Positions 5,067 to 54,710 of a stretch of DNA of 64,000 nucleotides are shown here, piece after piece (within the stretch, counting starts at the first letter, position 1; every line of letters begins with the position of its first letter). Below the pieces are notes generated by a model. The model was not told where the DNA came from. It ran no database searches and saw only the letters and a list, made by a program, of their open reading frames with translations. Where the stretch lies: positions 310 to 64,309 of the forward strand of contig CAYTPQ010000015.1 of NCBI GenBank assembly GCA_964439835.1. The letters are read 5' to 3'. A program made the position numbers and the translations under genes. The stretch is from an uncultured Ectothiorhodospiraceae bacterium (GTDB taxonomy: Bacteria > Pseudomonadota > Gammaproteobacteria > JAABTG01).

Positions 5067-6404
5067 TCAGCGTTCCACCCCCAGTCGGCGCATCCGCCGC
5101 CACAGGGTGCTGCGGTCGATCCCCAAGAGCTGTGCCGCCTCCGCCCGGTTGCCGCCAGTGCGCTCCAGGGCGTCGATGACCTCCCGGCGCTGGCGCTCCG
5201 TGGTGGGGGAGAGGGGGTCGGGGCGCGCGGGTGGCGGGGACTGCTCTCGCTGGAAGCGGCAGAGGTCCTGGGGCAGGCTCGCGAGGTTGACCACGCCGTT
5301 CTCGGCGCAGATGACGCTGTGCTCGACGGCGTTGGCGAGCTCCCGGACGTTGCCCGGCCAGGGGTAGTCCATCAGCAGCTTCATGGCCTCCCGGCTGAAG
5401 ATCACGCCGGAGGGGTAGCCGCGGGCGACCAGCTTGGATTGGAAGTGGTGCACCAACAGCGGGATGTCGCCCGGCCGCTCGCGCAGCGGTGGGACGTAGA
5501 TCGGGATGACCGCCAGCCGGTAGTAGAGATCCGGCCGGAACACCGCTGCGTCGACCGCGGCGCGCAGGTTGCAGTTCGAGGCGCTGACGACGCGCACGTC
5601 GACCGAGACGCTGTGGTCGGAGCCCACCGGCTCGAAACGGCCGTCCTGCAGCGCACCGAGCAGCTTGGGCTGCAGGTGCAGGGGGATCTCGGCGATCTCG
5701 TCCAGGAACAGGGTCCCACCGTCGGCGCTCTGGAAACGGCCGGCCCGGTCGCGGATGGCGCCGGTGAAGGCCCCCTTCACGTGCCCGAACAGCTCGGACT
5801 CGATCAGGCTGTCGGGGATAGCCGCGCAGTTGAGCTCGATGAGCGGACCGTCCTTGCGCCGGCTGATCTGGTGTAGGAAGCGCGCGAGCTCGCTCTTGCC
5901 GGTCCCCGACTCGCCCTGCAGCAGCACGAAGGCGTCGGTCGGGGCGATCTGCCGCAGCCGGGCCACGATCTGCAACATTTCCGGGTCCGCCGTCACCAGG
6001 CCGCACCCTGACTTGCCCTGGAACACGGCCTCCCACTGCCGGTGCTCCGTGCGGTCGCAGACAATCAGCACGACCACGTCTCGCCCGCTCACGGGCAGGC
6101 GCACCAGGCCCCGATGGAACTCGTAGAAGCGCGTGCCTTCCGGTCCCGTGAGCTCCTCCGCGAAGGTCTGCAGTCGAGCCTCCGGGAAGCTGGTGGACAC
6201 CGCCTTGCAGGCCGCGAGCACCGGCAGCGGGAGCACGGCCGCCAGGTCACCCAGCGCTTGGGGATGCGCCTCGGGGGCGACCCGCAACAGGGAGCGGGCC
6301 GTGTCGTTCAGGTACAGGAGGGTTCCGTCGGTTTCGGCGATCAGGATGCCGCTCTCGGTCTGGGCGGCCAACAGGTCCAGCACCGGCTCGATGTCTTGCA
6401 GCAT
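5067..6404 (-). CDS. Sigma54-dependent enhancer-binding transcriptional activator (PAS-like, AAA+, Fis-type HTH; no receiver domain)
   Basis: Walker A GESGTGKS, GAFTGA loop, GGTLFLDEI, YPWPGNVREL and C-terminal HTH (GGNRAEAAQLLGIDRSTLWRRM). GGAGG RBS upstream. Confidence 0.95.
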   Translation of the reverse strand: MLQDIEPVLDLLAAQTESGILIAETDGTLLYLNDTARSLLRVAPEAHPQALGDLAAVLPLPVLAACKAVSTSFPEARLQTFAEELTGPEGTRFYEFHRGLVRLPVSGRDVVVLIVCDRTEHRQWEAVFQGKSGCGLVTADPEMLQIVARLRQIAPTDAFVLLQGESGTGKSELARFLHQISRRKDGPLIELNCAAIPDSLIESELFGHVKGAFTGAIRDRAGRFQSADGGTLFLDEIAEIPLHLQPKLLGALQDGRFEPVGSDHSVSVDVRVVSASNCNLRAAVDAAVFRPDLYYRLAVIPIYVPPLRERPGDIPLLVHHFQSKLVARGYPSGVIFSREAMKLLMDYPWPGNVRELANAVEHSVICAENGVVNLASLPQDLCRFQREQSPPPARPDPLSPTTERQRREVIDALERTGGNRAEAAQLLGIDRSTLWRRMRRLGVER

Positions 6405-6647: not shown

Positions 6648-6663
6648 TGGCATGTCGATTGCT
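6648..6663 (+). promoter_or_regulatory. Sigma54 (RpoN) -24/-12 promoter
   Basis: TGGCATGTCGATTGCT matches TGGCAC-N5-TTGCW with exact GG/GC spacing (one C>T difference), about 95 nt upstream of the cytochrome ATG. Confidence 0.88.
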
Positions 6664-6756: not shown

Positions 6757-8214
6757 ATGAGAGGACGGGGCCTGGCCGCCGTAGCGGCCCTTGTTGCAGG
6801 TCTACCTGCTCTTGCCGGGGCGGAGGCCCCCGGCCCACAGGCGGGAATCAACCCGGACCAGCCTTTCCCGCCGTCGTACATCACGACCGACACGGGCAAG
6901 CCGATCAAGGTCGAGGATTTCCAGGATGCGACGCTGTGCATGGGCTGTCACCCGCGCCAGGCAGCGGGCTGGCAGGGCTCCATGCACTCGATCTCGTTCG
7001 TGGACCCGGTGTTCCAGAACCTCTGGGCGTTGGGTGACAAGGAGACGAAAGGGGCGACGATGAACCACTGCGGGGCCTGCCACACCGGCATCGGCATCGC
7101 CAGCGGCACCGTCAAGTTCGAGCCCGACAAGCCCGTGCACGGGGCCTTCACCGCGCCGGGCGTCGCCGCCAAGGGCGTGTCCTGCGACCTCTGCCACACC
7201 ATTTCGGGCTCGAACATCCTGAAGACCGCGGTGCTCGAGCACGGCAACGCCTCCTACGTGATGTCGCCCGGCCAGACCAAGCGGGGCCCGCTGCGTGACT
7301 CCAAGTCGCCGTTCCACCAGACGGCGTTCTCGGAGCTGCACACCAAGGCGGACTTCTGCGGCAACTGCCACAACATCTTCCACCCGACCAACAACTTCCC
7401 GGTCGAGCGGACCTACGACGAGTGGAAGTACTCGGTCTACGCCCAGAACGGCATCCAGTGTCAGGACTGTCACATGACGCCGGTGAAGACGGCGATCAAG
7501 GTCGCCGATGCCCTGAAGCCGGCCAAGGAGCTGGGTGACAAGGAGCTGGGTGGTGCCGCTGGCCTCGGCGGGCCGATGGACCGGGCGCTTGTGCACGACC
7601 ACGGCTTCGTCGGCGGCAACGCCGTCATCGCGCCGCTGCTCGGCGTTCAGGGTGGGGAGGAGCACAAGGCGATGGCGATCGAGCGGCTGCAAAACGTCGC
7701 CGAGCTCGAGGCCAAGGTGGAGCAGGTCAAGGACAGCCTGCACCTGTTGAAGGTGAAGGTGATCAACGCCCGCGCCGGCCATCACCTGCCGACCAGTCTG
7801 ACCGAGGTCCGTCAGGTCTGGGTCGAGGCGATCGTGACCGACGACAAGGGCCGCGAGCTGATGCGCTCCGGCACCATGACGGCCGAGAACGAGCTGCCCA
7901 AGGACGTGGTGATCTTCAACTCGCACGCGGTGGACAAGGACGGCAAGGACACGGTGAAGCCGTGGGAGGTCTCCCGGTTCACCGACACCACCACCATCCC
8001 GCCGAAGGGCTACAAGTACGCCAAGTATCCCTTCAACGTGCCGGCCGACGCGACCAAGCTGAAGGTCGAGGCGAAGCTGCACTATCGGTCCTTCGCGCAA
8101 GGTATTGCCGACCTGCTGGTGGGCAAGGGGACGGTGAAGGTGCCGTCAGTCGAGATGGAGTCCATCACGAAGGAGTTCCCGGTCAGCGCAGGGAAGGTGG
8201 CGCTGGCGCACTGA
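6757..8214 (+). CDS. Periplasmic pentaheme cytochrome c with C-terminal beta-sandwich domain
   Basis: GAGGAG RBS then ATG at 6757; signal peptide (MRGRGLAAVAALVAGLPALAGA); five CxxCH motifs (CMGCH, CGACH, CDLCH, CGNCH, CQDCH). Confidence 0.9.
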   Translation: MRGRGLAAVAALVAGLPALAGAEAPGPQAGINPDQPFPPSYITTDTGKPIKVEDFQDATLCMGCHPRQAAGWQGSMHSISFVDPVFQNLWALGDKETKGATMNHCGACHTGIGIASGTVKFEPDKPVHGAFTAPGVAAKGVSCDLCHTISGSNILKTAVLEHGNASYVMSPGQTKRGPLRDSKSPFHQTAFSELHTKADFCGNCHNIFHPTNNFPVERTYDEWKYSVYAQNGIQCQDCHMTPVKTAIKVADALKPAKELGDKELGGAAGLGGPMDRALVHDHGFVGGNAVIAPLLGVQGGEEHKAMAIERLQNVAELEAKVEQVKDSLHLLKVKVINARAGHHLPTSLTEVRQVWVEAIVTDDKGRELMRSGTMTAENELPKDVVIFNSHAVDKDGKDTVKPWEVSRFTDTTTIPPKGYKYAKYPFNVPADATKLKVEAKLHYRSFAQGIADLLVGKGTVKVPSVEMESITKEFPVSAGKVALAH

Positions 8215-8233: not shown

Positions 8234-8319
8234 AGAAGGGGGCGCTGCGGATCCCCGGCAGCCGACCCGCGCGGCGCGGGCGGCGCGGAGCGAGCACCCG
8301 GCGGCCCCCTTCTTTTTTT
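8234..8319 (+). terminator. GC-rich stem with large structured loop followed by a T run (possible terminator or attenuator)
   Basis: AGAAGGGGGC (8234-8243) pairs with GCCCCCTTCT (8304-8313), followed by a T tract. The roughly 60-nt loop is atypical for an intrinsic terminator. Confidence 0.4.
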
Positions 8320-8347
8320 GCGGGCGAAACCATTGGAGGTCATCGAG

Positions 8348-8938
8348 ATGCACAACAAGAAACTGGGTGCGGTGCTGACTGCCGGGTTGCTGGCGGCCAG
8401 CGCCTCCGCGGTTGCTGCCGGTCCCAGCGCGGCGACGGTGGTTGGCCACACCTGTGCCGGCTGTCACGGCACGAACGGCGCGAGCAAGGGCCCTGCGCCG
8501 ATCCTCGGTGGGCTGTCCGAGATGTACCTGGCCTCGACCATGGCCGCCTACAAGGACGGCACGCGGTACTCGACCATCATGGGCCGGCTCGCCAAAGGCT
8601 ACGACCAGGGCGAGATCCTGGACATGTCCAAGTTCCTCGCGGGCCAGCCCTGGGTCTCCGGAACGCGACCGGTGGACGCGAAGCTGGCCGAGAAGGGTAA
8701 GCAGGTGCACAACGCCAACGGCTGCGCCGGCTGCCACGGAGCGAACGGGATTTCTCCGATGCCGACGGCGCCGCGCATGGCGGGGCAGTACGCGGACTAC
8801 CTGTACTTCCAGATGCAGGACTACAAGGACGCGAGCAAGGCCGTTCCGGCCAGCGCGATGGTCATGCGCAGCATGTTGACTCCGGTTAGCGACGACGACG
8901 TGAAGGCGCTCGCGGCCTTCTACGCCAGCGCGAAGTGA
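8348..8938 (+). CDS. fccA: Flavocytochrome c sulfide dehydrogenase, diheme cytochrome subunit
   Basis: GGAGGT RBS, signal peptide, two CAGCH motifs in a c4-like diheme layout, directly upstream of fccB. Confidence 0.88.
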   Translation: MHNKKLGAVLTAGLLAASASAVAAGPSAATVVGHTCAGCHGTNGASKGPAPILGGLSEMYLASTMAAYKDGTRYSTIMGRLAKGYDQGEILDMSKFLAGQPWVSGTRPVDAKLAEKGKQVHNANGCAGCHGANGISPMPTAPRMAGQYADYLYFQMQDYKDASKAVPASAMVMRSMLTPVSDDDVKALAAFYASAK

Positions 8939-8951
8939 GGAGGGAGACGCC

Positions 8952-10235
8952 ATGAGCAGCATCAATCGTCGCGAGTTCGTCAAGCTGGCCGGCGCCGCAA
9001 CCGCGCTTGGCACCATGGGGTTCCCCCTGATCAGCTTCGGCGCCCCGAAGGCGAAGGTGGTGGTCGTCGGTGGCGGCTACTCCGGCGCCATCGTCGCGAA
9101 GTACACGCGGATGTATTCACCGGACATCGAGGTGACGCTGATCGAGAAGGAGAAGGAGTACATCTCCTGCCCGTTCAGCAACGAGGTGATCGGCGGTGAG
9201 CGGGACATCAAGACGCTCACCTTCACCTACGCGGGCCTCGGCAAGCACGGGGTCAACGTGGTGACCGACGAGGTGGTGGAGATCGACACCGCGAAGAAGA
9301 CGGTGAAGACCAAGGGCGGGAAGAGCTTCCAGGCCGACTATCTGGTGGTGGCGCCAGGCGTCGACTTCAAGTGGGGGGCGATTGCTGGGTACGACCAGGC
9401 GGCCAGCGAGCTGGTTCCGCACGCCTGGAAGGCGGGACCGCAGACCCTGCTGCTGAAGAAGCAGGTCGACGCGATGAAGGACGGGGGGCTTGCGATCATC
9501 GTGGCGCCGGCCAACCCCTTCCGTTGCCCGCCCGGCCCCTACGAGCGGGCGGCGACGATGGCCTTCAACCTGACGCATCACGGCAAGAAGAAGTGCAAGG
9601 TGATGATCCTGGACGCCAAGGACGCGTTCTCCAAGCAGGGGTTGTTCACCGCCGGGTGGAAGCACAACTACGGCGACATGATCGAGTGGGTGGGTGCCTC
9701 GGCGGGCGGCAAGGTGGAGTCGATTGACGCCAAGACTCTGACGGTGAAGGGCGAGTTCGACGAGTACAAGCCCGACGTGCTGAACGTCATTCCGCCGCAG
9801 AAGGCGGGTGCGATTGCGGAGAAGGCGGGTCTCACGGACGAGAAGGGCTGGTGCCCAGTGCACGGGGCGACCTTCGAGTCCAAGAAGGCGTCCGGGGTGT
9901 ACGTGGTAGGTGACGCCTGCATTGCCGGGGCGATGCCGAAATCGGGCTACGCGGCGAACACGCAGGCGAAGGTGGCGGCGGCGAACATCGCGGCAGCGGT
10001 GCTGGGGGTGAAGATCGCGAAGCCGGCGTTGACGAACACCTGTTACAGCCTGATTGCGCCGGACTACGGGATCTCGGTGGCAGGGGTGTACGGCATCGGG
10101 CCGGACGGGAACATCGTGGACGTCCAGGGCGCGGGCGGGGTCTCACCGGCGGACGCCAGCCTGGAGGCGCGCAAGCGCGAGGCGGTTTACGGCACGAGTT
10201 GGTACGATAATATCGTGGCCGACACCTTCAGCTGA
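8952..10235 (+). CDS. fccB: Flavocytochrome c sulfide dehydrogenase, flavoprotein subunit
   Basis: Tat signal (NRREFVK), FAD motif GGGYSG, catalytic cysteine contexts RCPPGPYERA and TNTCYSL. Confidence 0.93.
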   Translation: MSSINRREFVKLAGAATALGTMGFPLISFGAPKAKVVVVGGGYSGAIVAKYTRMYSPDIEVTLIEKEKEYISCPFSNEVIGGERDIKTLTFTYAGLGKHGVNVVTDEVVEIDTAKKTVKTKGGKSFQADYLVVAPGVDFKWGAIAGYDQAASELVPHAWKAGPQTLLLKKQVDAMKDGGLAIIVAPANPFRCPPGPYERAATMAFNLTHHGKKKCKVMILDAKDAFSKQGLFTAGWKHNYGDMIEWVGASAGGKVESIDAKTLTVKGEFDEYKPDVLNVIPPQKAGAIAEKAGLTDEKGWCPVHGATFESKKASGVYVVGDACIAGAMPKSGYAANTQAKVAAANIAAAVLGVKIAKPALTNTCYSLIAPDYGISVAGVYGIGPDGNIVDVQGAGGVSPADASLEARKREAVYGTSWYDNIVADTFS

Positions 10236-10341: not shown

Positions 10342-10947
10342 ATGCCCGTGTCCGAAACGAAGGAAGGGGGAGCGTCCGGCCGTCCCCACCGCAATTCGAA
10401 TCCCGCGGAAGCACCCTCGCAGGAGACCTCACGGGCGGCCGGGGGCACCGGCAGCACCGTGGCAAAGGTCGGGTTGATCGGCGTTCTCCTGATCGCCGCG
10501 GCGGGCGCCTTTCTGGGGATGGGCCTGTTCATGTGGAACATGGGCCGGGACATGACGACCATGACCACGGCCGTGGTCCAGATGGGCAAGGACGTCACCA
10601 GCATGGCCAACGACATGACGGTGATGACCGCGCAGATGAAGGTGATGGCCAAGAGCATGGTCGACGGCCAGGCCGCCATGGGCGCCGATCTGAATGCGAT
10701 GCGAGGGGGCATGGACTACATCGCCGGGAACATCGGCAGCATGAGCAAGGACATGCACGCGCTCAACGAGAACATTGCGGCGATGACCGGCAACATCGGG
10801 GCCATGACCAACGCGATGAACCAGATGAACGCCTCGATGGCGACGATGAACGGGTCCATCGGCGTCATGACCGGCACGATGGGCCACATGGCGTACGACA
10901 TCAACAAGTTCACCCGACCCGAGAGCATCATGACGCCGTTCCGGTAG
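10342..10947 (+). CDS. Membrane-anchored methionine-rich coiled-coil protein, unknown function
   Basis: GGGGAG RBS then ATG at 10342; one TM helix followed by about 27 Met, largely in alternating 3/4 spacing. Confidence 0.8.
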   Translation: MPVSETKEGGASGRPHRNSNPAEAPSQETSRAAGGTGSTVAKVGLIGVLLIAAAGAFLGMGLFMWNMGRDMTTMTTAVVQMGKDVTSMANDMTVMTAQMKVMAKSMVDGQAAMGADLNAMRGGMDYIAGNIGSMSKDMHALNENIAAMTGNIGAMTNAMNQMNASMATMNGSIGVMTGTMGHMAYDINKFTRPESIMTPFR

Positions 10948-10979
10948 GTCACTGCCGGTTGAACGGGAGGAGTAGAGCG

Positions 10980-11624
10980 ATGAAACGAGCCACGCTGCTG
11001 ACCCTCACGGCGCTGCTGACGAGCGCTGCAGCGGCGCAGCCCGGCGGTGCGCCGGGCTCCGCCTACCCGCCGGCGCCCGGTTACGGTGCGCCCGGCTACG
11101 GAGACCCTGCCGCCGGAGCGCCCCAGGGCTACGGTGGGATGCCGGGCTACGGCGCCCCGTCCTATGGTGGGCCGCCTCCGGGCGCCCCGTACGGCGCACC
11201 GGGGGCCGCGCCGCCGGCTGGCTACCCCGGCGCGGGTGGCCCGCCGGTGCCTGGTGGGGCCGCGGCCGAGAAGAAAGGGCCCATGGACAAGATGATGCAG
11301 CCGGTGCAGAAGATGATGGAGCCCGCAGAGAAGATGATGGCGCCGGCCGGGAAGATGATGGGCCCGATGGAGAAGATGATGGGCTCGGAGAAGGGTGCGG
11401 CGCCTCAGGCGGGGCCGCCGTCCCAGGGGCCCTACGGCGCGGCACCCGGCTATCCGGGCGCGCCGGGATACGGAGGTCCGCCTCAGGGCTACGGTCCTGC
11501 GCAGGGGTATGGGGCGCCCCCGGGCTACGGTGCCCCGCAGGGCTACGGCGCACCTCCACCCGGGGCTTACGGCCCCGGCCAGGGCGGGTATCCGGGTTAC
11601 GCCCCGCCGCCGCCTGCCCAGTGA
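10980..11624 (+). CDS. Secreted Gly/Tyr/Pro-rich protein resembling sulfur globule envelope proteins (Sgp-like)
   Basis: GGAGGAG RBS; Sec signal MKRATLLTLTALLTSAAAA; many GYGAP/PGYG repeats flanking five KMM-containing heptads. Family assignment rests on composition only. Confidence 0.7.
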   Translation: MKRATLLTLTALLTSAAAAQPGGAPGSAYPPAPGYGAPGYGDPAAGAPQGYGGMPGYGAPSYGGPPPGAPYGAPGAAPPAGYPGAGGPPVPGGAAAEKKGPMDKMMQPVQKMMEPAEKMMAPAGKMMGPMEKMMGSEKGAAPQAGPPSQGPYGAAPGYPGAPGYGGPPQGYGPAQGYGAPPGYGAPQGYGAPPPGAYGPGQGGYPGYAPPPPAQ

Positions 11625-11643: not shown

Positions 11644-11683
11644 CCGCGGCCGGTGGCGGATGTCTGCCACCGGCCGCGGTTTT
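11644..11683 (+). terminator. Rho-independent terminator closing the cytochrome/fcc operon
   Basis: CCGCGGCCGGTGGCGGA-TG-TCTGCCACCGGCCGCGG stem followed by TTTT. Confidence 0.7.
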
Positions 11684-13862: not shown

Positions 13863-14894
13863 TCAGGTGTGGGGAGGGTGCTGGGGCGGCAACGCCGGCG
13901 CCAGCCCCCGTGACTGCAGCTCCGCGTACCACAGGTCGTGGTGCTGCTGGACCCAGCGGGCATCCGCATACCCGGTCTTCATAGTCTCGAAGGCCCCCTC
14001 CACGCCGACCGTCGCCAGATAGAGGTGGACGGTGAAGAAGGCGAGCACCACGATCGAGGCGACCGTGTGCAGCACGTGCGCCGCCTGCATCACCTCCCGC
14101 CCCTGGCCATAATTGGGGAAGTCGAGCACCAGGCCGGAGACGCTGAGCGCAATCCCCATGAAGACTGCGGTCCAGAACCACAGCTTCTGGCCGGCGTTGA
14201 CCTTCTCGGAGCTCGGGTGGGGCCCGCCGAGGTAGCCACCGGCCATCAGGAACCACTTCAGGTCGACCTTCAGATTGAACAGCGAGTCCCGCAGGTACTT
14301 GAAGAACATGATCGGGACCATGACGACGAAGAAGGGTCCTACGAAGTTGTGCACGTTCTTGCTCACGATCGCGATCGCGGAGAAGACCTCCGGGCCGAGG
14401 ACCGGCATCAGGATCCAGCGTCCGAACAGCAGCACCACACCTGTCAGGCCCAGGAGCACGAACGGGATCGCGACCAGCCAGTGCACGACCCGATCCATGC
14501 GCGTGTAGCGCTCTACCTGTACGCCGGAGCGTCCGCCTTCGATGCGCAGGCGGCCCCGGAACAAGAAGTACAGGACGAACACGCCGACCATGCCGCCGAG
14601 GACGAGGCCGCCGTACGGCACCAGATAGGACACCCGGTACTCCCGCCAGAGCTCGCCGGTCTCGGTGATCAGGACGCCGGTGTCGACACCTTGAACTTGA
14701 GTCGCGCCCACGCCGGCGTGGCGAGCCTCGCGCCAGAGATCGGCACCGGGGTTCGGCACCGAGATCGGGCCACTTCCCAGAGGGGGAGTCTGGGCGAGGA
14801 GGGGAAGGGCGAGCGTCAGGAGCAACACCGCAACGAATGCCCGGCCGAGGCGGGCCGGTGCTGCGCGAGGTGTTTCACTTTGCAGTCCGCTCAC
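13863..14894 (-). CDS. fdhI: Formate dehydrogenase gamma subunit (cytochrome b556) with periplasmic N-terminal extension
   Basis: Four TM helices with heme His residues (VVHW, VHNF, VLHT, TVHLY), KVNAGQK motif, downstream of fdhB. Start approximate. Confidence 0.88.
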   Translation of the reverse strand: MSGLQSETPRAAPARLGRAFVAVLLLTLALPLLAQTPPLGSGPISVPNPGADLWREARHAGVGATQVQGVDTGVLITETGELWREYRVSYLVPYGGLVLGGMVGVFVLYFLFRGRLRIEGGRSGVQVERYTRMDRVVHWLVAIPFVLLGLTGVVLLFGRWILMPVLGPEVFSAIAIVSKNVHNFVGPFFVVMVPIMFFKYLRDSLFNLKVDLKWFLMAGGYLGGPHPSSEKVNAGQKLWFWTAVFMGIALSVSGLVLDFPNYGQGREVMQAAHVLHTVASIVVLAFFTVHLYLATVGVEGAFETMKTGYADARWVQQHHDLWYAELQSRGLAPALPPQHPPHT

Positions 14895-15077
14895 GGAAGG
14901 TCCTCCCGCGGCACGGCCGTCGCTGCGGTGGCCGCCCGCTCGAACAGCGCCGGATCGGCTCCGCACCGCGCCTGTCCCGGGGGGTGTGGAGCCACCCGCT
15001 GCGCCCGATAGGTCCGCGGGAGCGGTGACCTACGCCGGTCTGCCGGCGCTGAGGCCGCCGCTCCCTCGGAGTAGCCT

Positions 15078-15150
15078 CATCCCTGGAGGCATGGAGCCCC
15101 CGGGCGGGCCGAGTCCAGCGCTCGCCCCGGGGCTCCATGCCTCTCGGATG
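15078..15150. repeat. Long intergenic hairpin between fdhB and fdhI
   Basis: GAGGCATGGAGCCCCCGGG (15086-15104) pairs almost perfectly with CCCCGGGGCTCCATGCCTC (15125-15143), extended by CATCC/GGATG. Confidence 0.6.
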
Positions 15151-15156
15151 GCATGG

Positions 15157-15741
15157 TCAGCCCTTCTTGCCGTAGGCAGCGCCCCAGCCGAAGGAGAAGC
15201 CGGCGGCGCCCCGGTAGGCCACCCGCTGCCGGAAGATGTCGGAGACCACGTCGCCGTCGCCAGCCAGGAGGGCCTTGGTGGAGCACATCTCCGCGCAGAG
15301 CGGGAGCTTCCCCTCGGATAGCCGATCGCGCCCGTACTGGCGCACACCGTCCGCCCCCTCGACCGGTCCGCCGGCGCAGAAGGTGCACTTGTCCATCTTG
15401 CCCCGGGAGCCGAAGGCGCCACCGGCCGGGAACTGCGGTGCCCCGAACGGGCAGGCGTAGAAGCAGTACCCGCAGCCGATGCAGATGTCCTTGTTGTGCA
15501 GTACCACGCCGTCGTCGGTCTGGTAGAAGCAGTCGACCGGGCAGACCGCCATGCACGGGGCATCCGAGCAGTGCATGCAGGCCACCGAGAGCGAGCGCTC
15601 GCCGGGCGAGCCGTCCTTGATGGTCACCACCCGGCGCCGGTTGACGCCCCAGGGGATCTCGTGCTCGTTCTTGCACGCCGTCACACACGCGTTGCACTCG
15701 ATGCAGCGCTCCGCGTCACACAGGAACTTCATGCGGGCCAT
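15157..15741 (-). CDS. fdhB: Formate dehydrogenase iron-sulfur (beta) subunit
   Basis: Four 4Fe-4S Cys groups (CIECNAC, CMHCSDAPC, CIGCGYC, KCTFC). Confidence 0.93.
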   Translation of the reverse strand: MARMKFLCDAERCIECNACVTACKNEHEIPWGVNRRRVVTIKDGSPGERSLSVACMHCSDAPCMAVCPVDCFYQTDDGVVLHNKDICIGCGYCFYACPFGAPQFPAGGAFGSRGKMDKCTFCAGGPVEGADGVRQYGRDRLSEGKLPLCAEMCSTKALLAGDGDVVSDIFRQRVAYRGAAGFSFGWGAAYGKKG

Positions 15742-15758
15742 GGCTCAATCCCCTCCTG

Positions 15759-18635
15759 TCAAGCGCGGCTGATCCGGCAGAGCGAGCACTTCGTCTCCTG
15801 CATCGCCGTCACCGAGTCGTAGCCGTAGGTGAAGGCGGTGTTGCAGGCCTCGCCCAGCACGTAGGGGTCGCTGCCCTTGGGGTACTTGTTCCGCAGGTCC
15901 TTGCCCTGGAAGTGGCCACCGAAGTGGTAGGGCATCCACACCACGCCGGGGGCCACGCCGTCCTGGGTGACCTTGGCCATGATCTTGATGCGTCCGCCCT
16001 CCGGCCCCTCGAGCCAGACCATGTCGCGGTCCCTGATGCCAATGTTGTTGGCGTCGACCTGGTTGATCTCGACGAACATGTGCTGCTGGAGCTCGGCGAG
16101 CCAGGGGTTGGAGCGGGTCTCGTCGCCGCCACCCTCGTACTCGCACAGGCGGCCGCTGCTCATGATCAGCGGGAACTCCTTGCTGTAGTCCTTGGCCTGG
16201 ATCGAGCCGTAGCGGGTCGGCAGGCGGAAGAAGGACTTGCGGTCCTGGTAGGTCGGATACTTCTCGACCAGGTCGCGGCGCGAGGTGTAGAGCGGCTCGC
16301 GGTGGATGGGCACCGGGTCCGGGAACTCCCAGGCGATGCAGCGGGCCTTGGCGTTGCCGAGCGGCGCGCAGCCGTGCTTGATCACGACGCGCTGGATCCC
16401 GCCCGAGAGGTCGGTCTTCCAGTTCTTGCCCTCGGCCTCCTTCTTCTCCGCTTCGGTCAGATCGTCCCACCAGCCCAGCTTCTTCAGCAGCGCCGCATCG
16501 AACTCGGGATAGCCGTCCTGGATCTCCGAGCCCTTGGTGTAGGAGCCGTCGGCGAGCAGGCTCACCCCCTCGCGCTCGACGCCGAACCGCGCGCGGAACG
16601 GTAGCCCCCCCTCCGCGACGGTCATGCTGGTGTCGTAGAGATTGGCCGTGCCCGGGTGCTTCATCTCGGGGGTGCCCCAGCAGGGCCACGGCAGGCCGTA
16701 GAACTCCCCGTCGGCGGGGCCGCCCTTGGCCCGCAGGGTGGTAAAGTCGAACGTATGCCAGTTCTGCTGGTGGGCCTGCAGGCGCTCCGGGCTCTGGCCC
16801 GTGTAGCCGATGGTCCACATGCCGCGGTTGTACTCGCGGACGATGTCCTCGATCAGCGGCTCCTCACCGTTCACCTTGGTGTTCTTGAAGAGCTGCTCGG
16901 CAAAGCCGAGCTTCTTCGCGAATTTGTTCATGATGGTGTGGTCGGGCAGCGACTCGAACAGCGGCTCGATCACCTTGTCCCGCCACTGCACCGAGCGGTT
17001 GGAGGCCGTGCAGGAGCCATAGGTCTCGTACTGGGTCGCGGCCGGCAGCAGGTAGACGCCGTCCTTGCGGTCGTTCATCACCGCCGTCACGGTCGGGTAG
17101 GGGTCAACGACGACGAGGAGATCCAGCTTCTCCATCGCCTTCTTCATCTCCGGCCCGCGCACCTGGCTGTTCGGCGCGTGGCCCCAGAAGATCATCGCGT
17201 GCAGGTTGTCCTTCTGCCCCATCAGGGCCTTGTCCTCGAGCACCCCGTCGATCCAGCGGGAGACCGGAATGCCCTTGGTGTTCATGGGCTTCAGCGGCTT
17301 CTCCTTGGTGCCCTCGTAGCTGCCCTGATCGAACCGTCCGGCGAGCCACTCGTAGTCCACCCCCCAGACCCGGGCCCAGTGCTTCCAGGAGCCCTCGGCG
17401 AGCCCGTAGTAGCCCGGCAGGTCGTCGCAGAGCACGCCGAAGTCGGTGGCGCCCTGCACGTTGTCATGGCCGCGGAAGATGTTCGTGCCGCCGCCGGCCA
17501 CGCCCATGTTGCCGAGCGCCAGCTGGAAGATGCTGTAGGCGCGGGTGTTGTTGTTGCCGATGGTGTGCTGGGTGCCGCCCATGCACCAGATGAACGTGCC
17601 CGGCCGGTTGTCGGCCATGGTCTTGGCGGCCCGCTTCACCTGCGCCTCGGGCACCCCGGTGACGCGCTCGACCTCGTCGGGCGTCCACTTGGCCACCTCG
17701 TCCCGCACCTTGTCCATCCCGTACACCCGCTGGCGGATGAACTCCTTGTCCTCCCAGCCGTTCTGGAAGATGTGCCAGAGCATGCCCCAGATGAGCGGCA
17801 CGTCGGTCCCCGGGCGGATCCGGATGTACTGGCTGGCGTGGGCCGCGGTACGGGTGAAGCGCGGGTCGATGACGATGAGCGGTGCGTGGTTGCGCTCGGT
17901 GGCCTCGAACACGTGCAGCAACGACACCGGGTGGGCCTCGGCGGGGTTGCCGCCGATGATCAGGATGGCCTTGGAGTTGTGGATGTCGTTGTAGCTGTTG
18001 GTCATCGCGCCGTAGCCCCAGGTGTTCGCGACACCGGCCACGGTGGTGGAGTGGCAGATGCGCGCCTGGTGGTCGACGTTGTTGGTGCCCCACATGGAGG
18101 CGAACTTCCGGAACAAGTAGGCCTGCTCGTTGTTGAACTTGGCCGAGCCGAGCCAGTACACCGAGTCGGGCCCCGACTGCTCGCGGATCTTGAGCAGCTG
18201 GTCGCCGATCTCATTGATGGCCTGGTCCCAGCTGATCCGGGTCCATTCCCCGTTCACGAGCTTGGTCGGGTACTTCAGCCGCCGCTCGCCGTGGCCGTGC
18301 TCGCGCACTGCCGCACCCTTCGCGCAGTGGCCGCCGCGGTTGAAGGGATGGTCGAAGGCCGGCTCCTGGCCGGTCCACACGCCGCTCTGGACCTCGGCGT
18401 AGATGCCGCAGCCGACCGAGCAGTGGGTACAGATGGTCCGCGCGATCCGCACCTTCTCGGCTGCGGCGGGTGCCGCGGCTGCGTCGGCCCGGCGAACCAT
18501 GCCCACCGGGAGGGAACCGGCGGCCGCCAGGCCACCGATGGCGAGACCGGACCGCTTGACGAAGGTGCGCCGATCGAGGGTGCCGCCCGGAGAGGAGGCG
18601 TTGCCGTCCGTCGGGTGCTTCTTGACAAGTTTCAT
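15759..18635 (-). CDS. fdhA: Formate dehydrogenase alpha subunit (bis-MGD, Cys-ligated, probably tungsten)
   Basis: Tat signal DRRTFVKRS; CTHCSVGC...C Fe-S motif; active site ARICHSTT with a TGC Cys codon; RGHDNVQG. Confidence 0.95.
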   Translation of the reverse strand: MKLVKKHPTDGNASSPGGTLDRRTFVKRSGLAIGGLAAAGSLPVGMVRRADAAAAPAAAEKVRIARTICTHCSVGCGIYAEVQSGVWTGQEPAFDHPFNRGGHCAKGAAVREHGHGERRLKYPTKLVNGEWTRISWDQAINEIGDQLLKIREQSGPDSVYWLGSAKFNNEQAYLFRKFASMWGTNNVDHQARICHSTTVAGVANTWGYGAMTNSYNDIHNSKAILIIGGNPAEAHPVSLLHVFEATERNHAPLIVIDPRFTRTAAHASQYIRIRPGTDVPLIWGMLWHIFQNGWEDKEFIRQRVYGMDKVRDEVAKWTPDEVERVTGVPEAQVKRAAKTMADNRPGTFIWCMGGTQHTIGNNNTRAYSIFQLALGNMGVAGGGTNIFRGHDNVQGATDFGVLCDDLPGYYGLAEGSWKHWARVWGVDYEWLAGRFDQGSYEGTKEKPLKPMNTKGIPVSRWIDGVLEDKALMGQKDNLHAMIFWGHAPNSQVRGPEMKKAMEKLDLLVVVDPYPTVTAVMNDRKDGVYLLPAATQYETYGSCTASNRSVQWRDKVIEPLFESLPDHTIMNKFAKKLGFAEQLFKNTKVNGEEPLIEDIVREYNRGMWTIGYTGQSPERLQAHQQNWHTFDFTTLRAKGGPADGEFYGLPWPCWGTPEMKHPGTANLYDTSMTVAEGGLPFRARFGVEREGVSLLADGSYTKGSEIQDGYPEFDAALLKKLGWWDDLTEAEKKEAEGKNWKTDLSGGIQRVVIKHGCAPLGNAKARCIAWEFPDPVPIHREPLYTSRRDLVEKYPTYQDRKSFFRLPTRYGSIQAKDYSKEFPLIMSSGRLCEYEGGGDETRSNPWLAELQQHMFVEINQVDANNIGIRDRDMVWLEGPEGGRIKIMAKVTQDGVAPGVVWMPYHFGGHFQGKDLRNKYPKGSDPYVLGEACNTAFTYGYDSVTAMQETKCSLCRISRA

Positions 18636-18692
18636 GGTGCAGGCTCCTGGCAGATCACCGCCGGGGGGCAGGTCGCAAGGACCGCCCCCGCC

Positions 18693-18899
18693 TCAGATCC
18701 GTGCAGATTCGTAGTAGGCGCGCACATGCGCCGTTTCCTGGTAACCCCGGCGTTTCTTGGGAGCCGGCTGACCCGGGTCCGGGGCCGCCGCGGAGGAGGC
18801 TGGCGGGAGGGCCACCGCCACCGCCGCGGCACCACCCGCTGTGGTCAGGGTCTTAAGAAAGTGCCTTCTGCTGGTATCGAGCGCTTGCGGGTTGCTCAT
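18693..18899 (-). CDS. Small Tat-signal protein of formate dehydrogenase regions
   Basis: SRRHFLK twin-arginine motif and C-terminal GYQETAHVRAYY typical of this family. Confidence 0.8.
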   Translation of the reverse strand: MSNPQALDTSRRHFLKTLTTAGGAAAVAVALPPASSAAAPDPGQPAPKKRRGYQETAHVRAYYESARI

Positions 18900-18944
18900 G
18901 CTGCCCTCCAGTGCGCCGGTCCTCCCGCCGGGAGGGGCCGCCCC

Positions 18945-19550
18945 TCAGACGGGAAGGTCGAAGTAGAGCCGCTCCAGCTCGAGGAAGCGGCGCCCCAGGC
19001 CGCCGACCGCCCGGTACAGACGCGCGGACTCGGCCTGCTCGAGGTCTTCGAAGAACCGCCCCATCCATGGCGCGACGTGCGCCTCGAAGAACGACTGCTG
19101 ATGCTCACGCGAAATGTCCCCTGTGAAATTGATCATTCGCATGATCTCGCACAGGGCCGCGGCATGGTCCTCCGGCTCGTACACCCCCTCCGACCGCGCA
19201 AACCCGAGCCGAGCGAGGTCCTCTCGCAGCGCCGCGAGCGGTTGCTCCATCAGGTATCCGGTGAGATACCAGGAAGCATAGGGGAGGACCTCGCCCCGTC
19301 CGAGCCCGATGAAGAGGTGGTAGTACTCCCGCTCCGCCTGCTCGGGGCTGCTTGCCAGCGCCGCCTCGCGCAAGGCGTGCCAGGCCGGTGCCAGGGGGCT
19401 GTCCGCTGCGTCGTCGGGGCTGAGGGCCGCCAGCGTGGCGAGGGTGGCCGCGTCCGGCGGACGGGCCAGGAGCGCTGCGAGCAGGCCGTAGACGTCGGCT
19501 CGCGGCTGGTCCGTTGACGACCTGGGGTCGAGGCGGTCCTCAGCGGTCAC
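18945..19550 (-). CDS. TorD/DmsD-family molybdoenzyme chaperone
   Basis: PYASWYLTG and EPEDHAAALCE motifs, inside the fdh operon. Confidence 0.88.
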   Translation of the reverse strand: MTAEDRLDPRSSTDQPRADVYGLLAALLARPPDAATLATLAALSPDDAADSPLAPAWHALREAALASSPEQAEREYYHLFIGLGRGEVLPYASWYLTGYLMEQPLAALREDLARLGFARSEGVYEPEDHAAALCEIMRMINFTGDISREHQQSFFEAHVAPWMGRFFEDLEQAESARLYRAVGGLGRRFLELERLYFDLPV

Positions 19551-21195
19551 GGCGCTCGTCCTCGGCTGTGGCCTGGGCTGCGAGCTCGGCCTCGTAGAGT
19601 GCCCGGACGCGGCAGTCCTCGCACATCTGCAGGCGCTCCAGCGCCGGGCCCAGGAACAGGGGGTGGTTGGCCAACCGGGCGGTCATGCGGTCGATCAGGC
19701 TGCGGGTCCCGAACGGCTTGCCGCAACGGATGCAGTGAAACGGCGGCTCCTCCTTCAGGACCCGCGGGGTTCGCCGGCGCACGGGGTCGAAGAGATACCG
19801 CGGAGACGGGCCGATGGCGTCCTCCGGGCAGGAACGGCCGCACAGGCCGCACTGCACGCAGTTGTCCTCGATGAAGCGCAGCTGCGGGCCCTCCTCGCCG
19901 CCCAGCAGGGCCTTGCCCGGGCACTGGGAGACGCAGGCCATGCAGAGCGTGCAGCGGGCCCCGTCGAGCCAGACCTCGCCGAAGGGGGCGCCGGCCGGCA
20001 GGCTGATCAGCGGCCGGCGCGCCGGCGCGTGCCGATGGAGGTGGTCGAGGGCGAGGCGTGCCACCGCGCGCTTGTCGTCCAGGCCCGCGAAGCCCGCGGG
20101 CTCCGCCGGCGGCGGCGCGGCGCTGGGCGCCCACGTCTGGCCGGCAAGGTCGGACACCACCGCCACGGCGTCCTCGGGATACCTCATCCCCTGGAGCAGC
20201 GCGGCGGCCAGGGTAACCTGCTCGTCGAGGACCCGGCGCGCCGAGGCCGGGGTCGCAGGCGGTGCCAGCAGGCGCACGGCCGCCGCGCCGTAGGCCAGGG
20301 CCGCGAGCCAGACTTCGAGCCCCGCGCTGCCGACCTCTTCCAACTCCACCGGGACCACCGCGTCCGGCAGGTCCGCCGCGCGCGCCTGGGTGCCGTCTTC
20401 TCGCCCGTGCAGGAGCAGGACCGGTGCCCCACCGCCGGCGCTGCGGTAGGCCCCCAGCAGGGCCTTGAGGGCCTCCAGGGTCTCGCCGGGTCTCGGGGTG
20501 GCGTACCGGATCGCACCCGTGGGGCAGGCCGTGGCGCAGACGCCGATGCCCTGGCACAGGCTCGGGTCCACGGCGATCCGCTCGCCGAGGGCAGTGATGG
20601 CCTCGGCGGGGCAGGCTTCGATGCAGCGCCGACAGCCCACGATGCCGCTGCGGGCGTGGGCGCAGACGTCGGGGTCGTAGCGAAAGTACTTCGGCTTCTC
20701 GAATTCCCCGACCAGGTCGGGGAGCTGGGCCAGGGCCGACGCCAGGGCCTCGGGGTCGGTGCCGGGGGCGAAGTAGCCGGGTGGCAAGACCTCGCGGCGC
20801 AGCAGCGGCGGGCTGCCCAGATCGAGGACCAGGTCGATGGCGTCGCCCGCCTCCGGGAGCAGCTCGCCCAGACCGACCGGCCCGGCGGCAGTCTGCACGG
20901 TGAGCCGGAAGGCGCCCAGGTGACCGGTCAGGGCCGCAGCCGGTGCCCGGACCGCGGGGACGTCCCCGTGCTCGATGCCGCCGGCGGCATCTGGGGGCAC
21001 GGGGATCAGGCGCAGGCAGGTGAGGGGGCCGGCCAGGTGCGTGACGGCGTCGCGCGCCGGGGCGTCGTCGCCGCCGACGATCAGCAGCCGGCCCCTGGAA
21101 CGGAACGAGACCGAGTCTCCCGCACTCCGGGTGACCTCGGAGAAGGCGCGCAGTGCCGCCTGGCGTGGCGATCCGTTCGGGTGGGTTGCACTCAC
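19540..21195 (-). CDS. Polyferredoxin (4Fe-4S binding) protein of fdh clusters
   Basis: Multiple ferredoxin-type Cys motifs (GCRRCIEACP, CQGIGVCATACP, CTLCMACVSQCP, CVQCGLCGRSCP, CIRCGKPF). Confidence 0.85.
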   Translation of the reverse strand: MSATHPNGSPRQAALRAFSEVTRSAGDSVSFRSRGRLLIVGGDDAPARDAVTHLAGPLTCLRLIPVPPDAAGGIEHGDVPAVRAPAAALTGHLGAFRLTVQTAAGPVGLGELLPEAGDAIDLVLDLGSPPLLRREVLPPGYFAPGTDPEALASALAQLPDLVGEFEKPKYFRYDPDVCAHARSGIVGCRRCIEACPAEAITALGERIAVDPSLCQGIGVCATACPTGAIRYATPRPGETLEALKALLGAYRSAGGGAPVLLLHGREDGTQARAADLPDAVVPVELEEVGSAGLEVWLAALAYGAAAVRLLAPPATPASARRVLDEQVTLAAALLQGMRYPEDAVAVVSDLAGQTWAPSAAPPPAEPAGFAGLDDKRAVARLALDHLHRHAPARRPLISLPAGAPFGEVWLDGARCTLCMACVSQCPGKALLGGEEGPQLRFIEDNCVQCGLCGRSCPEDAIGPSPRYLFDPVRRRTPRVLKEEPPFHCIRCGKPFGTRSLIDRMTARLANHPLFLGPALERLQMCEDCRVRALYEAELAAQATAEDERRDR

Positions 21196-21201
21196 CGCTG
21201 A

Positions 21202-21954
21202 TCAGCTCCCTGCATCCACGCGGGGCGCCGGGTCTGGCGCCCCTGCGAGGTCGATGGAGTCATCCCCGGTCTGCCCGCTCGGCTCGGGCTGACCGGGTTC
21301 GCCGCCCTGGGCTTCGCCGGGGCTCGGCTGCGGCTCGGGGCGGTGGGGCGCGCGTGCGGCGCTCGCGCCGGGGGCGGTGTGTGCCTGCGCCGACGCCTGA
21401 TCGCCTGGGGCCGTGTCGCCAGCCGCCTCCGTGAGGCGGCGCGCCTCGCGCTCGAGGGCGGCCCGCACCTCGTGGGGCACCAGGTCTCCCAGGGGCTCGA
21501 AGTGGGTATAGTCCTCCCAGTAGTCTGTCAGGCCGTCCCGCACGTTGCGCTCCGGCAGGTGGAATAGCTTGCGCAGCGCCTGCCGGCGCAGGGCGGGGTC
21601 GACCTCCGGCGCCAGGAAAGGCCGGAAGTCCGATTGGGCGTCCAGGGACTCCAGCGGGGGCAGCTCGACGGCCTCTGCCTGCGCCGGCGGAGGGGCGGGT
21701 GCAGCCGGCCGGTCCGGTCCGGCCGTCCCGCCCGCCCGCCGCGGGCCGTGATCCGGTGGTTGCGCCGGTGGCTGTGCTGGACCCGGGCGGGGGGGCGGTC
21801 CGTCGCTCACGGCCGACCCCGGCTCGGGACGGTGCGGAGCCCCGGTCACGGCGCCCGCCGCGCCACGGGCGGCCTGCTTCAGCCGCAGCCAGCGGCCGAG
21901 GAATCCCTCGCTCGCCGTTGGTGGCCCCTCCCGGCGCTCAGGACGGGCAGTCAC
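21202..21954 (-). CDS. DUF3306-family protein
   Basis: FLGRWLRLK, LRRQALRKLF and DGLTDYWEDY motifs; paired with DUF3305. Confidence 0.8.
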   Translation of the reverse strand: MTARPERREGPPTASEGFLGRWLRLKQAARGAAGAVTGAPHRPEPGSAVSDGPPPRPGPAQPPAQPPDHGPRRAGGTAGPDRPAAPAPPPAQAEAVELPPLESLDAQSDFRPFLAPEVDPALRRQALRKLFHLPERNVRDGLTDYWEDYTHFEPLGDLVPHEVRAALEREARRLTEAAGDTAPGDQASAQAHTAPGASAARAPHRPEPQPSPGEAQGGEPGQPEPSGQTGDDSIDLAGAPDPAPRVDAGS

Positions 21955-22450
21955 AGGATGGCCCTCCCTCGGCTCCCTCGTCGAGCTTGCGCTTGCGGCG
22001 CTTCTCCGGCACGTAATGCTCGATCACGTAGGCCTCGACCCAGCGATAGACCTCGGGCGGCATCGCGACCGGGAAGACCTGGCCGTCGCCCTGCATGTAG
22101 GCCTCTGCGGCGTCGTAGCTCGCTGTGGCATGGATCGTCTTCAACCCGCCGCCGTCCTGGGGCCGGCAGACGACGAACACCCGGGGCGCCGCGCTGGTCA
22201 GGTTGTGGTAGTAGCTCTCCACCTCGTCCCGGAACAGCGACAGCGTCAGCCCGGTATCGAGGAACTGGGTGGCGTCCGGCTCGCTGCGCGCAATGGTGCG
22301 CGTCGCGTGCCCGGCCGCCGCCTGGCCGGCGACCAGCCCGACGACTCGCCAGCGCTCGCTCTGCCACGGGTTGTCCCGCAACGCCTCCCGCGTCAGCAGG
22401 ACCGCGACGGGGAGGCTCTGGGGTGCGTCGTCGCTCGGGGCTGGGGTCAT
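21938..22450 (-). CDS. DUF3305-family protein
   Basis: NPWQSERW, LFRDEVESYYHNL and RRKRK motifs; likely ATG at 22450. Confidence 0.8.
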   Translation of the reverse strand: MTPAPSDDAPQSLPVAVLLTREALRDNPWQSERWRVVGLVAGQAAAGHATRTIARSEPDATQFLDTGLTLSLFRDEVESYYHNLTSAAPRVFVVCRPQDGGGLKTIHATASYDAAEAYMQGDGQVFPVAMPPEVYRWVEAYVIEHYVPEKRRKRKLDEGAEGGPSCDCPS

Positions 22451-22657
22451 CGGGCTGGAAAGCACGTGGCGGACGTTTATGATGCGAGTCAGAGGCGCTG
22501 GCGGACTGGCCCCTCGGCCAGCGGTGAGCACGCCGTACCCATGCGTACCGGCTCAGTACCGCAGCCAGGGTGAGCGGCTCCCGGCCGCCGACTATCGCCG
22601 CGGTCAGGACCCGATCAGGGTCTCCACACCGAGGACCAGAGCGGGCGAGCCTGATTC

Positions 22658-23560
22658 ATGCATGAGCTTAGCAAAGTCGAGGAGGAGGTGGACGCCCCCT
22701 ACCGGCCGACGATGACCCGGGCCGGGTTGGCGCCGACCCATGCCGTTACCGCCCTCGACGAGTACGGCGAGCCGCGCGAGGTGCACGTCGCGGGGGAGAT
22801 GCCGCTCACGCTCTACGTCGACGGCCGAGAGATCGTGACCCTGATGACGCTCGGCACCCATCCCGAGGCCCTGGCCCTCGGCTACCTGCGGACCCAGCGC
22901 TTCCTCGAGGCCATCGAGGACGTGCGGTCGGTCGAGATCCGGTGGGACACCGAGTCCGCCCGGGTGACGACCTGGCATGGGGTCGAGGGGTGGGACGAGA
23001 AGCTCAAGCGGCGCACGGTGACGACCGGCTGTGGGCAGGGCACGGTGTTCAGCTGCACCCTCGACAAGCTCTACAGCCTGCGCTTGCCCGACGCGACGGT
23101 GCGCCAGTCCACGCTCTACGGCCTGCTGCAGAGCCTCGCTCGAGCCAACGAGGTCTACCGCCGGGCGGGCGCGGTGCACGGCTGCGCCCTCTGCGTGGGC
23201 ACCGAGCCCCTGCTGTTCGTCGAGGACGTGGGTCGTCACAACGCCGCCGACGCGGTGGCGGGGTACATGTGGCTGGAACGCATCGCGGGCGACGACAAGG
23301 TCTTCTACACCACCGGCCGGCTCACCTCCGAGATCGTCATGAAGGTCGCCCTGATGGGTGTGCCGGTGCTGGTGTCCCGCTCCGGGGTCACTCACATGGG
23401 TCTGGAGCTTGCCCGCGAGGTGGGCATGACCATGATCGCGCGGGCCAAGGGCCGGCATTTCCTGGTCTACAACGGCGCCGAGCGGGTGGTCTTCGACGAG
23501 CCACCGGAGCTGCGGCACTCCACCGACTTCCGCCGTGGGGCCGACGAAGACCCGACCTAG
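22658..23560 (+). CDS. fdhD: Formate dehydrogenase accessory sulfurtransferase
   Basis: TTGCGQG, GAVHGCAL, EDVGRHNA and TTGRLTSE motifs. Confidence 0.92.
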   Translation: MHELSKVEEEVDAPYRPTMTRAGLAPTHAVTALDEYGEPREVHVAGEMPLTLYVDGREIVTLMTLGTHPEALALGYLRTQRFLEAIEDVRSVEIRWDTESARVTTWHGVEGWDEKLKRRTVTTGCGQGTVFSCTLDKLYSLRLPDATVRQSTLYGLLQSLARANEVYRRAGAVHGCALCVGTEPLLFVEDVGRHNAADAVAGYMWLERIAGDDKVFYTTGRLTSEIVMKVALMGVPVLVSRSGVTHMGLELAREVGMTMIARAKGRHFLVYNGAERVVFDEPPELRHSTDFRRGADEDPT

Positions 23561-40252: not shown

Positions 40253-40253
40253 C

Positions 40254-41564: not shown

Positions 41565-41655
41565 GTGCCGGCAACCCATACCCCCCCATGCCGAGGGCTG
41601 GGGTCGGGCCTCCGCGGGGGGAACGCCGGTGCCCGGGTTAACCCGACGCAGGGTT

Positions 41656-41682
41656 CTGGGTTCCGGCTCTCGCCGGAGTGAC
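41656..41682. repeat. REP-like unit, family A
   Basis: CTGGGTTCCGGCTCTCGCCGGAGTGAC between hlyD and the next gene. Confidence 0.6.
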
Positions 41683-41725
41683 GACAGCGGTCTGTTCGGG
41701 CGTTCCGCCCGGTGAGTGCGCGCAC

Positions 41726-54706: not shown

Positions 54707-54710
54707 GGCG

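Follow-up and report, generated by a model that had tools for sequence, protein, structure and literature searches.

A methionine-heptad protein paired with a membrane-anchored methionine zipper in an apparent flavocytochrome c operon of an uncultured Ectothiorhodospiraceae bacterium

Is a small, repetitive, exported Gly/Tyr/Pro-rich (GYP) protein encoded beside sulfide-oxidation genes a sulfur-globule protein (Sgp), or does its neighbourhood point to another partner? The question is raised by an open reading frame (ORF), hereafter the target, in a 64,000-nucleotide stretch of DNA from an uncultured Ectothiorhodospiraceae bacterium (contig CAYTPQ010000015.1 of assembly GCA_964439835.1), the whole of which we call the window. 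A preliminary description of this DNA had presented the product as a new variant of the sulfur-globule coat proteins, whose amphipathic methionine-rich core would contact sulfur or the product of a neighbouring methionine-zipper gene. In our analysis, the target is best understood as a lineage-specific accessory of this zipper. The two genes and their parts, in window positions, are the following.

10342-10947, plus strand: membrane-anchored methionine zipper, with an N-terminal transmembrane helix, a coiled coil of about 130 residues and a C-terminal DINKFTRPESIMTPFR
10964-10971, plus strand: Shine-Dalgarno sequence GGGAGGAG of the target, with an 8-nt spacer to the ATG, read directly
10980-11624, plus strand: target ORF of 214 amino acids (start ATG at 10980, last letter of the TGA stop at 11624), read from the sequence
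10980-11039, plus strand: predicted Sec signal peptide of the target, residues 1-20, with cleavage after AAA, recognised by inspection and kept in homologues
11040-11267, plus strand: N-terminal GYP/GYGAP low-complexity block, residues 21-96, defined by composition and predicted to be disordered (AlphaFold2 pLDDT 41-46)
11268-11399, plus strand: charged Met-rich core, residues 97-140, with five xxKMMxP heptads at 11283-11387 (Tandem Repeats Finder period 21; weak helix in AlphaFold2)
11400-11624, plus strand: C-terminal GYP block, residues 141-214, plus the stop codon, with the family-conserved PPxAQ end
11644-11683, plus strand: GC-rich hairpin with a 16-bp stem and UUUU behind it, found by RNA folding and probably the intrinsic terminator of the operon

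Inspection of the target N-terminus, MKRATLLTLTALLTSAAAA with cleavage before QP, revealed the n/h/c layout of a Sec signal peptide and an AxA cleavage site. The mature protein of 18.3 kDa is made up of 26 % Gly, 25 % Pro, 17 % Ala, 9 % Tyr and 7 % Met, among other residues, and contains no Asn, Trp, Phe, His or Cys. Its two G/P/A/Y blocks (residues 21-96 and 141-214) have 30-32 % Gly, 28-30 % Pro and 11-14 % Tyr and share 9 GYG, 6 YGAP and 5 PGYG motifs between them, the C-terminal one ending in PPPPAQ. The core heptads read MDKMMQP, VQKMMEP, AEKMMAP, AGKMMGP and MEKMMGS, and the underlying DNA repeat was delimited by Tandem Repeats Finder at 11285-11382 (period 21, 4.7 copies, 77 % matches, score 105). 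Since only AAGATGATG (Lys-Met-Met) is invariant between the units, the repeat is kept at the protein level and does not stem from a recent DNA duplication. The AlphaFold2 model has a mean predicted local distance difference test (pLDDT) value of 48, with 41-47 in the arms and a weak helix at 51-62 in the core, and on this model the target is a largely disordered exported protein. The signal peptide, the two GYGAP blocks, the five central KMM heptads and the 21-bp repeat of the preliminary description are thus all present in the sequence, while the amphipathic helix proposed for the core is weak, given a proline every seven residues and the low pLDDT of this segment.

The target is a real gene. 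Its ATG follows the zipper stop codon by 32 nt, and the terminator hairpin 20 nt past its own stop codon has a folding energy of -52.3 kcal/mol (z = -5.6), which none of 200 shuffled sequences matched; a consensus promoter and terminator scan found nothing and overlooked this hairpin because its U-tract is short. Across the 15 pairwise codon comparisons of six homologous genes, the ratio of nonsynonymous to synonymous changes (pN/pS) is 0.17-0.33, and these genes differ from one another by the in-frame gain or loss of whole repeat units. The G+C content at third codon positions of the target is 0.81. This GC-rich region also has several overlapping ORFs in its other frames, as would be expected if the target were a spurious ORF in GC-rich repetitive DNA, yet such an origin is hardly credible in view of the Shine-Dalgarno sequence, the signal peptide, the conserved architecture of the homologues, a pN/pS of about 0.2, the exclusively in-frame indels and the terminator right after the stop codon.

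The zipper named in the preliminary description is equally real. Methionine occupies positions a and d (i, i+3) through 18 consecutive heptads with no register break, and not one of 5000 shuffled sequences gave as strong a Fourier signal at 3.5 residues. AlphaFold2 predicts a single continuous helix from residue 39 to 191 with pLDDT values of 60-80; such a helix of about 150 residues would be about 20 nm long, which is probably comparable to the width of the periplasm. A four-sequence alignment (A2) has 57 invariant columns, 20 of them Met, and all four proteins retain the conserved C-terminal DINKFTRPESIMTPFR. The family is rare, with 6 clusters among 5.8 billion proteins and 13 genome loci, the latter obtained with a tighter alignment, the first one having been too divergent. 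A PDB sequence search with the zipper profile returned generic coiled-coil noise only. This all-Met coiled-coil core, which belongs to no described family, is arguably more unusual than the target itself. The zipper family is found mainly in sulfur-oxidising Gammaproteobacteria: six of the 13 loci are labelled Thiotrichales, Chromatiaceae, Ca. Thioglobus, Thiothrix, Cocleimonas or Ca. Parabeggiatoa, and the others comprise four unclassified Gammaproteobacteria, two distant alphaproteobacterial homologues and one locus labelled Omnitrophota. Literature searches found no publication on the zipper family or the target family, and nothing relevant that links Met-rich proteins to nosZ or flavocytochrome c.

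How widespread is the target? An exact-sequence look-up gave no record, neither the target nor its homologue P0001 has a Pfam or NCBIfam match even at E<=10, and a PDB sequence search with the target-family profile returned no match at E<=10. A word-indexed search of 5.8 billion proteins identified two relatives. HMMER, run exhaustively with a profile against 1.84 billion representatives, recovered about five true clusters (P0009, P0010, P0011, P0014 and P0015), and two further loci of the family came from a metagenome scan. Five other candidates from the exhaustive search (P0012, P0013 and P0016-P0018) were judged by eye to be unrelated tandem-repeat proteins and were set aside. The target therefore belongs to a tiny orphan family, of which more than 10^9 proteins contain about six lineages. 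All true members possess a signal peptide, GYP blocks, one or two Met-heptad blocks and a PPxAQ or PPR end, and the number and order of the blocks vary freely between homologues. The heptad of the relatives is P-M-x-x-M-(M)-x in 5-8 copies, compared with the five xxKMMxP units of the window protein, and the Met-rich core is the sole part of the family alignment with invariant columns. The window DNA itself occurs in sludge and bioreactor metagenomes.

The coupling of zipper and target recurs in every informative homologous locus of the target. Because the two genes are translationally adjacent and co-occur, because invariance within the target family is confined to the Met heptads, and because the P-M-x-x-M-x-x heptad of the relatives repeats the i/i+3 Met spacing found in the zipper, we consider it rather likely that the target docks on the zipper as a physical partner. 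The target is a Sec-exported, mostly disordered periplasmic protein of about 18 kDa and would serve as an accessory of the inner-membrane-anchored zipper. Its central heptads may bind to the zipper along its thioether-lined face, or prolong that face, and its two Gly/Tyr/Pro arms would then form a flexible Tyr-rich fringe.

Does the target nevertheless descend from the Sgps? The profile PF17228 (SGP) matched neither the target nor P0001 even at E<=10, while it scored 43 bits, with a cut-off of 26.7, on a control protein encoded near one of the two distant alphaproteobacterial zipper homologues. These two homologues lie 0.6-6 kb from genes of secreted G/Y/W-rich proteins, listed here by locus.

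L018, 2627-3178, plus strand: secreted G/Y/W/N-rich Sgp-like protein, the PF17228 control
L019, 6709-7206, 11971-12507, 12617-13075 and 13198-14079, minus strand: secreted G/Y/W/N-rich Sgp-like proteins

Only the L018 protein passed PF17228; those of L019 look related by eye (GSFNFG motif) and were missed by HMMER. The negative result for the target has to be read with this in mind, as HMMER composition filters can hide low-complexity matches and two visibly Sgp-like L019 proteins also went unmatched. BLASTP between the target and the PF17228 control yielded short compositional matches only, with E of at least 0.3, and the exhaustive profile search with the target family recovered no Sgp-like protein. 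The composition differs as well, G/P/A/Y/M in the target versus G/N/A/P/Y/W in the control. Kyte-Doolittle hydropathy does not discriminate between the two (-0.63 for the target versus -1.05 for the control), and low hydrophobicity as an argument against an Sgp role was dropped, the control being even more hydrophilic.

According to the published description (PMC10386293), what Sgps have in common is a Sec signal and a repetitive sequence in which prolines recur at regular intervals. The target shows both published traits, but they are not specific. A genuine, highly diverged member of the SgpA/B/C family would account for the Sec signal, the G/Y-rich repeats with spaced prolines and the sulfur-oxidation gene context. 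Besides the missing PF17228 match and the merely compositional BLASTP matches, the target lacks the G/N/W-rich stretches and the GSFNFG-type motif of the control and the L019 proteins, and at the sequence level such a descent, very improbable in our judgement, is effectively refuted. What remains of the proposed coat variant, which is thus partly supported, is a secreted, repetitive Gly/Tyr/Pro-rich protein in an fccAB operon, coupled to the neighbouring zipper; membership in the Sgp family is not supported, and no other family was matched even at E<=10.

Compared with SgpA/B/C of Allochromatium vinosum and other globule formers, the target is likewise a Sec-exported, low-complexity, repetitive Gly/Tyr-rich protein with spaced prolines from sulfur-oxidising Proteobacteria, and both are plausibly structural, not enzymatic. 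It differs by the absence of detectable homology, by its size (18 kDa mature, against the 11-13 kDa quoted for SgpA-C; PMC10386293), by a charged Met-heptad core, which Sgps are not described as having, and by its operonic position with cytochromes. SgpD (Alvin_2515), the fourth globule protein of A. vinosum, contains repeats and predicted long helices, is exported by Sec and localises to globules; its family is reported to be almost restricted to Chromatiaceae (PMC10386293). Compared by description only, it fits the zipper better than the target, and the pair of a helical and a G/Y-rich protein echoes SgpD plus SgpA-C, with the difference that SgpD is soluble and secreted and the zipper membrane-anchored. 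The YGAP and GYG motif chemistry, the disorder and the variable repeat number also recall elastomeric and other low-complexity proteins such as resilin (YGAP), abductin (Gly/Met) and plant glycine-rich wall proteins; these are eukaryotic and extracellular, and the analogy is one of composition that implies no evolutionary or functional link. A Gly/Tyr-rich, exported protein encoded near sulfur genes does not, on these grounds alone, deserve the Sgp label.

With which enzymes would the pair of zipper and target work? The genes upstream of the zipper in the window are these.

5067-6404, minus strand: divergent sigma-54-dependent activator with PAS, AAA+ and Fis-type helix-turn-helix domains (Pfam Sigma54_activat 1e-64, AAA_lid_14, HTH_8, PAS_4)
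6648-6663, plus strand: candidate sigma-54 -24/-12 box TGGCATGTCGATTGCT, TGGCAT-N5-TTGCT, with one mismatch to TGGCAC-N5-TTGCW
6757-8214, plus strand: pentahaem c-type cytochrome with five CxxCH motifs and a signal peptide (weak Pfam Cytochrome_C554 and MtrC-domain matches only)
8318-8938, plus strand: FccA, which supplies the dihaem cytochrome c of flavocytochrome c sulfide dehydrogenase (top PDB match 1fcd_C, E 2e-24)
8952-10235, plus strand: FccB, sulfide dehydrogenase flavoprotein subunit carrying a Tat signal (Pfam matches to FCSD_central, 3e-46, FCSD-flav_bind, 1e-27, and TAT_signal)

The target is apparently the last gene of an operon that runs from the pentahaem cytochrome through FccA, FccB (106 nt ahead of the zipper) and the zipper, under sigma-54 control. 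The candidate box lies about 95 nt upstream of the likely cytochrome start (6757). Two matches to the box were found within the window against 1.1 expected, which is not above chance, and the box would gain its credibility from its place beside the divergent activator. The pentahaem cytochrome, of about 490 amino acids, has no Pfam match above threshold and no PDB sequence relative. No Rfam match was obtained in the window, and scans of the window genes detected no dsr, sox, sgp or nos genes.

Comparison of the zipper loci shows which parts of this arrangement are constant. The pentahaem cytochrome is the most conserved gene of the module, 58-62 % identical in L001, L010, L011, L013, L015 and L025, and with the sigma-54 activator (47-55 %), whose orthologues flank the same module in L010, L011 and L012, it provides the constant neighbours of the zipper (L001, L010, L011, L012, L013, L015 and L025). 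The dihaem slot is usually occupied by a c4-type cytochrome, to which the window FccA is only about 27 % identical; in the window, FccA and FccB are found there. The fccAB genes also adjoin the zipper in L005 and lie within 3.5 kb of it in L013. Apart from the window, a single related clade (L001, L002, L023 and L025) has a target-type GYP/KMM gene behind the zipper. Thiotrichaceae-type loci have instead, after the zipper or close to it, a gene for a small secreted acidic protein with a conserved EP[DE]CD end, whose near-terminal Cys recalls, by analogy, the swinging sulfur-carrier arm of SoxY.

L015, 2381-2605; L016, 1159-1374; L012, 3200-3463: EP[DE]CD-ending proteins of Thiothrix, Cocleimonas and related loci

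From this context we tentatively favour, as a possibility that falls short of probable, a disordered periplasmic zipper partner in a thioether-rich matrix that holds zero-valent sulfur or polysulfide, and that would be Sgp-like in function, not in ancestry. The zipper and the target would together form a membrane-tethered, thioether-rich periplasmic matrix beside the cytochromes, suited to holding soft, sulfur-affine cargo, for which the best candidate at this locus is the zero-valent sulfur or polysulfide released by FccAB. We favour sulfur as the cargo because fccAB lies in the operon and near other zippers and because the zipper family is concentrated in sulfur-oxidising lineages, and also because the distant zippers are independently paired with Sgp-type genes and the constant partner is a multihaem cytochrome of mineral type.

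A number of observations weigh against this preference. To our knowledge, there is no precedent for Met-rich proteins binding elemental sulfur, and Met motifs are the classical Cu(I) ligand set. In the clade of L001, L002, L023 and L025, and likewise in L021 and L024, a Sec-dependent (clade II) nosZ comes next and the operon has no fccB; because the pair of this related clade stands upstream of nosZ without fccB, the sulfur-globule reading is only one of two live options. A GYP/KMM gene is missing from most zipper loci, and the target is therefore dispensable for the role of the zipper. No metatranscriptome contig spans the body of the target: in wetland contigs, relatives of the cytochrome and zipper genes are transcribed with coverage up to position 10991, and such contigs, which show presence and not absence, are uninformative for the target. 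As judged from sequence, the target has no relationship to any Sgp and we do not file it as one. Finally, the target is operonic, whereas each sgp gene of A. vinosum is described as a transcription unit of its own (PMC10386293).

The other live option is that the target and the zipper act as a periplasmic Cu(I) buffer or chaperone. The PMxxMM and xxKMMxP heptads would be Mets-motif Cu(I) sites and the Met-lined coiled coil would store or conduct Cu(I), supplying or protecting copper for the clade II N2O reductase in a sulfidic periplasm where sulfide scavenges copper. Clusters of the MxxM or MxM type bind Cu(I) in Ctr1, in the inserts of CueO, PcoA and CopA, in CusF and CusB, and in PcoE and SilE, and sulfide inhibits NosZ. 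Clusters of the MxxM, MxM or MM type in an exported flexible segment are present in the target and its relatives. As Met motifs are known Cu(I) ligands, this option has a better chemical precedent than sulfur. The likeness to these Cu(I)/Ag(I) binders extends to the clustering of Met at i/i+3 or i/i+1, to a periplasmic, oxidation-tolerant thioether chemistry and, in the relatives, to a gene that adjoins a copper enzyme: the pair lies directly upstream of nosZ in L021, L023, L024 and L025, and a zipper without target partner does so in L007. The identity of NosZ is supported by Pfam nos_propeller and COX2 matches, and its closest named relatives, from Ca. Thiosymbion, Sedimenticola and Chromatiaceae, carry the names of sulfur-oxidising lineages. 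However, the nosZ-linked loci of the pair belong to one related clade and amount to roughly one independent observation, most zipper loci have no copper enzyme, and a related complete nos cluster (L026-L028), with nosL and nosDFY, does without the zipper/target module. The window operon, for its part, includes fccAB and is closed by a terminator; neither nosZ nor any other copper gene lies close by, and there is no cop, cus or pco context. The mature target offers no His or Cys, and so no His partners to its methionines, it has no homology to the Met-motif binders and no match to CusF, PcoE or CopM-type families, and its GYP arms, which have no counterpart there, are left unexplained. On balance, we regard a role in copper handling as somewhat unlikely.

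It is also conceivable that no cargo is involved, and that the zipper is a strut spanning the periplasm or a docking post for the pentahaem cytochrome and its partners (FccAB or NosZ), with the target as a disordered Tyr-rich spacer or condensate former that cushions an electron-transfer assembly and Met serving merely as a flexible, oxidation-tolerant hydrophobic residue. The constancy of the cytochrome and the sigma-54 activator next to the zipper, where other genes vary, is in agreement with such a scaffold, as is the predicted zipper helix, with its probable match to the width of the periplasm. The predicted disorder of the target and the free variation in number and order of its blocks are likewise what one would expect of a spacer. 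Against it, the occupation of a and d by Met alone over 18 heptads, together with heptads that are the sole invariant part of the target, suggests that the thioethers matter, and the complex itself is only inferred; we hold a purely structural accessory to be unlikely. A broader proposal, that the zipper and the target constitute an undescribed periplasmic structure acting as a conduit or reservoir of soft cargo, be it S0 chains passed on to multihaem cytochromes or Cu(I) that N2O reductase could draw on in the presence of sulfide, is doubtful at present.

If this broader proposal held, a thioether-lined, anchored coiled coil of about 20 nm, decorated by a disordered Tyr/Gly/Pro protein, would stand between the inner membrane and the periplasmic redox enzymes. 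The locus touches on two open questions about sulfur oxidisers, how insoluble zero-valent sulfur is kept reactive and tethered in their periplasm, and how copper enzymes such as N2O reductase are matured despite sulfide. The answers matter for sulfur-driven denitrification and for the N2O emitted by wastewater systems, in which this DNA occurs. The locus offers a compact and testable two-gene candidate beside a conserved, transcribed and uncharacterised pentahaem cytochrome with a dedicated sigma-54 regulator.

Further gene clusters were noted elsewhere in the window. A molybdopterin oxidoreductase cluster at 13863-23560 encodes a 958-aa catalytic subunit, Fe-S subunits, a cytochrome b, a NarJ-like chaperone, DUF3305 and DUF3306 proteins and FdhD, and is followed by a molybdate-type ATP-binding cassette (ABC) transporter and MobA/MoeA genes. 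ARAGORN reports a tRNA-Arg (gcg) of 90 nt at 21331-21420 on the plus strand, opposite the minus-strand DUF3306 ORF; its length is unusual and it may be a false positive. At 38126-49097 on the plus strand lies a type I secretion set, comprising a C39-peptidase ABC exporter, an HlyD-like protein and a 434-aa ORF with no Pfam match, and then, within the same interval, a 2055-aa ORF that probably encodes a giant secreted repeat protein. An archaeal-type fructose-1,6-bisphosphate aldolase/phosphatase (PF01950, E 1.6e-158) is encoded at 49295-50398 and a PucC-family protein at 55861-57261, both on the plus strand; they may hint at an autotrophic or phototroph-related ancestry of the host and are not decisive. 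At 54071-55883 on the minus strand, 43 kb from the target, an MsrQ/MsrP pair (Ferric_reduct and Oxidored_molyb) for periplasmic methionine-sulfoxide repair is found, which could service very Met-rich periplasmic proteins.

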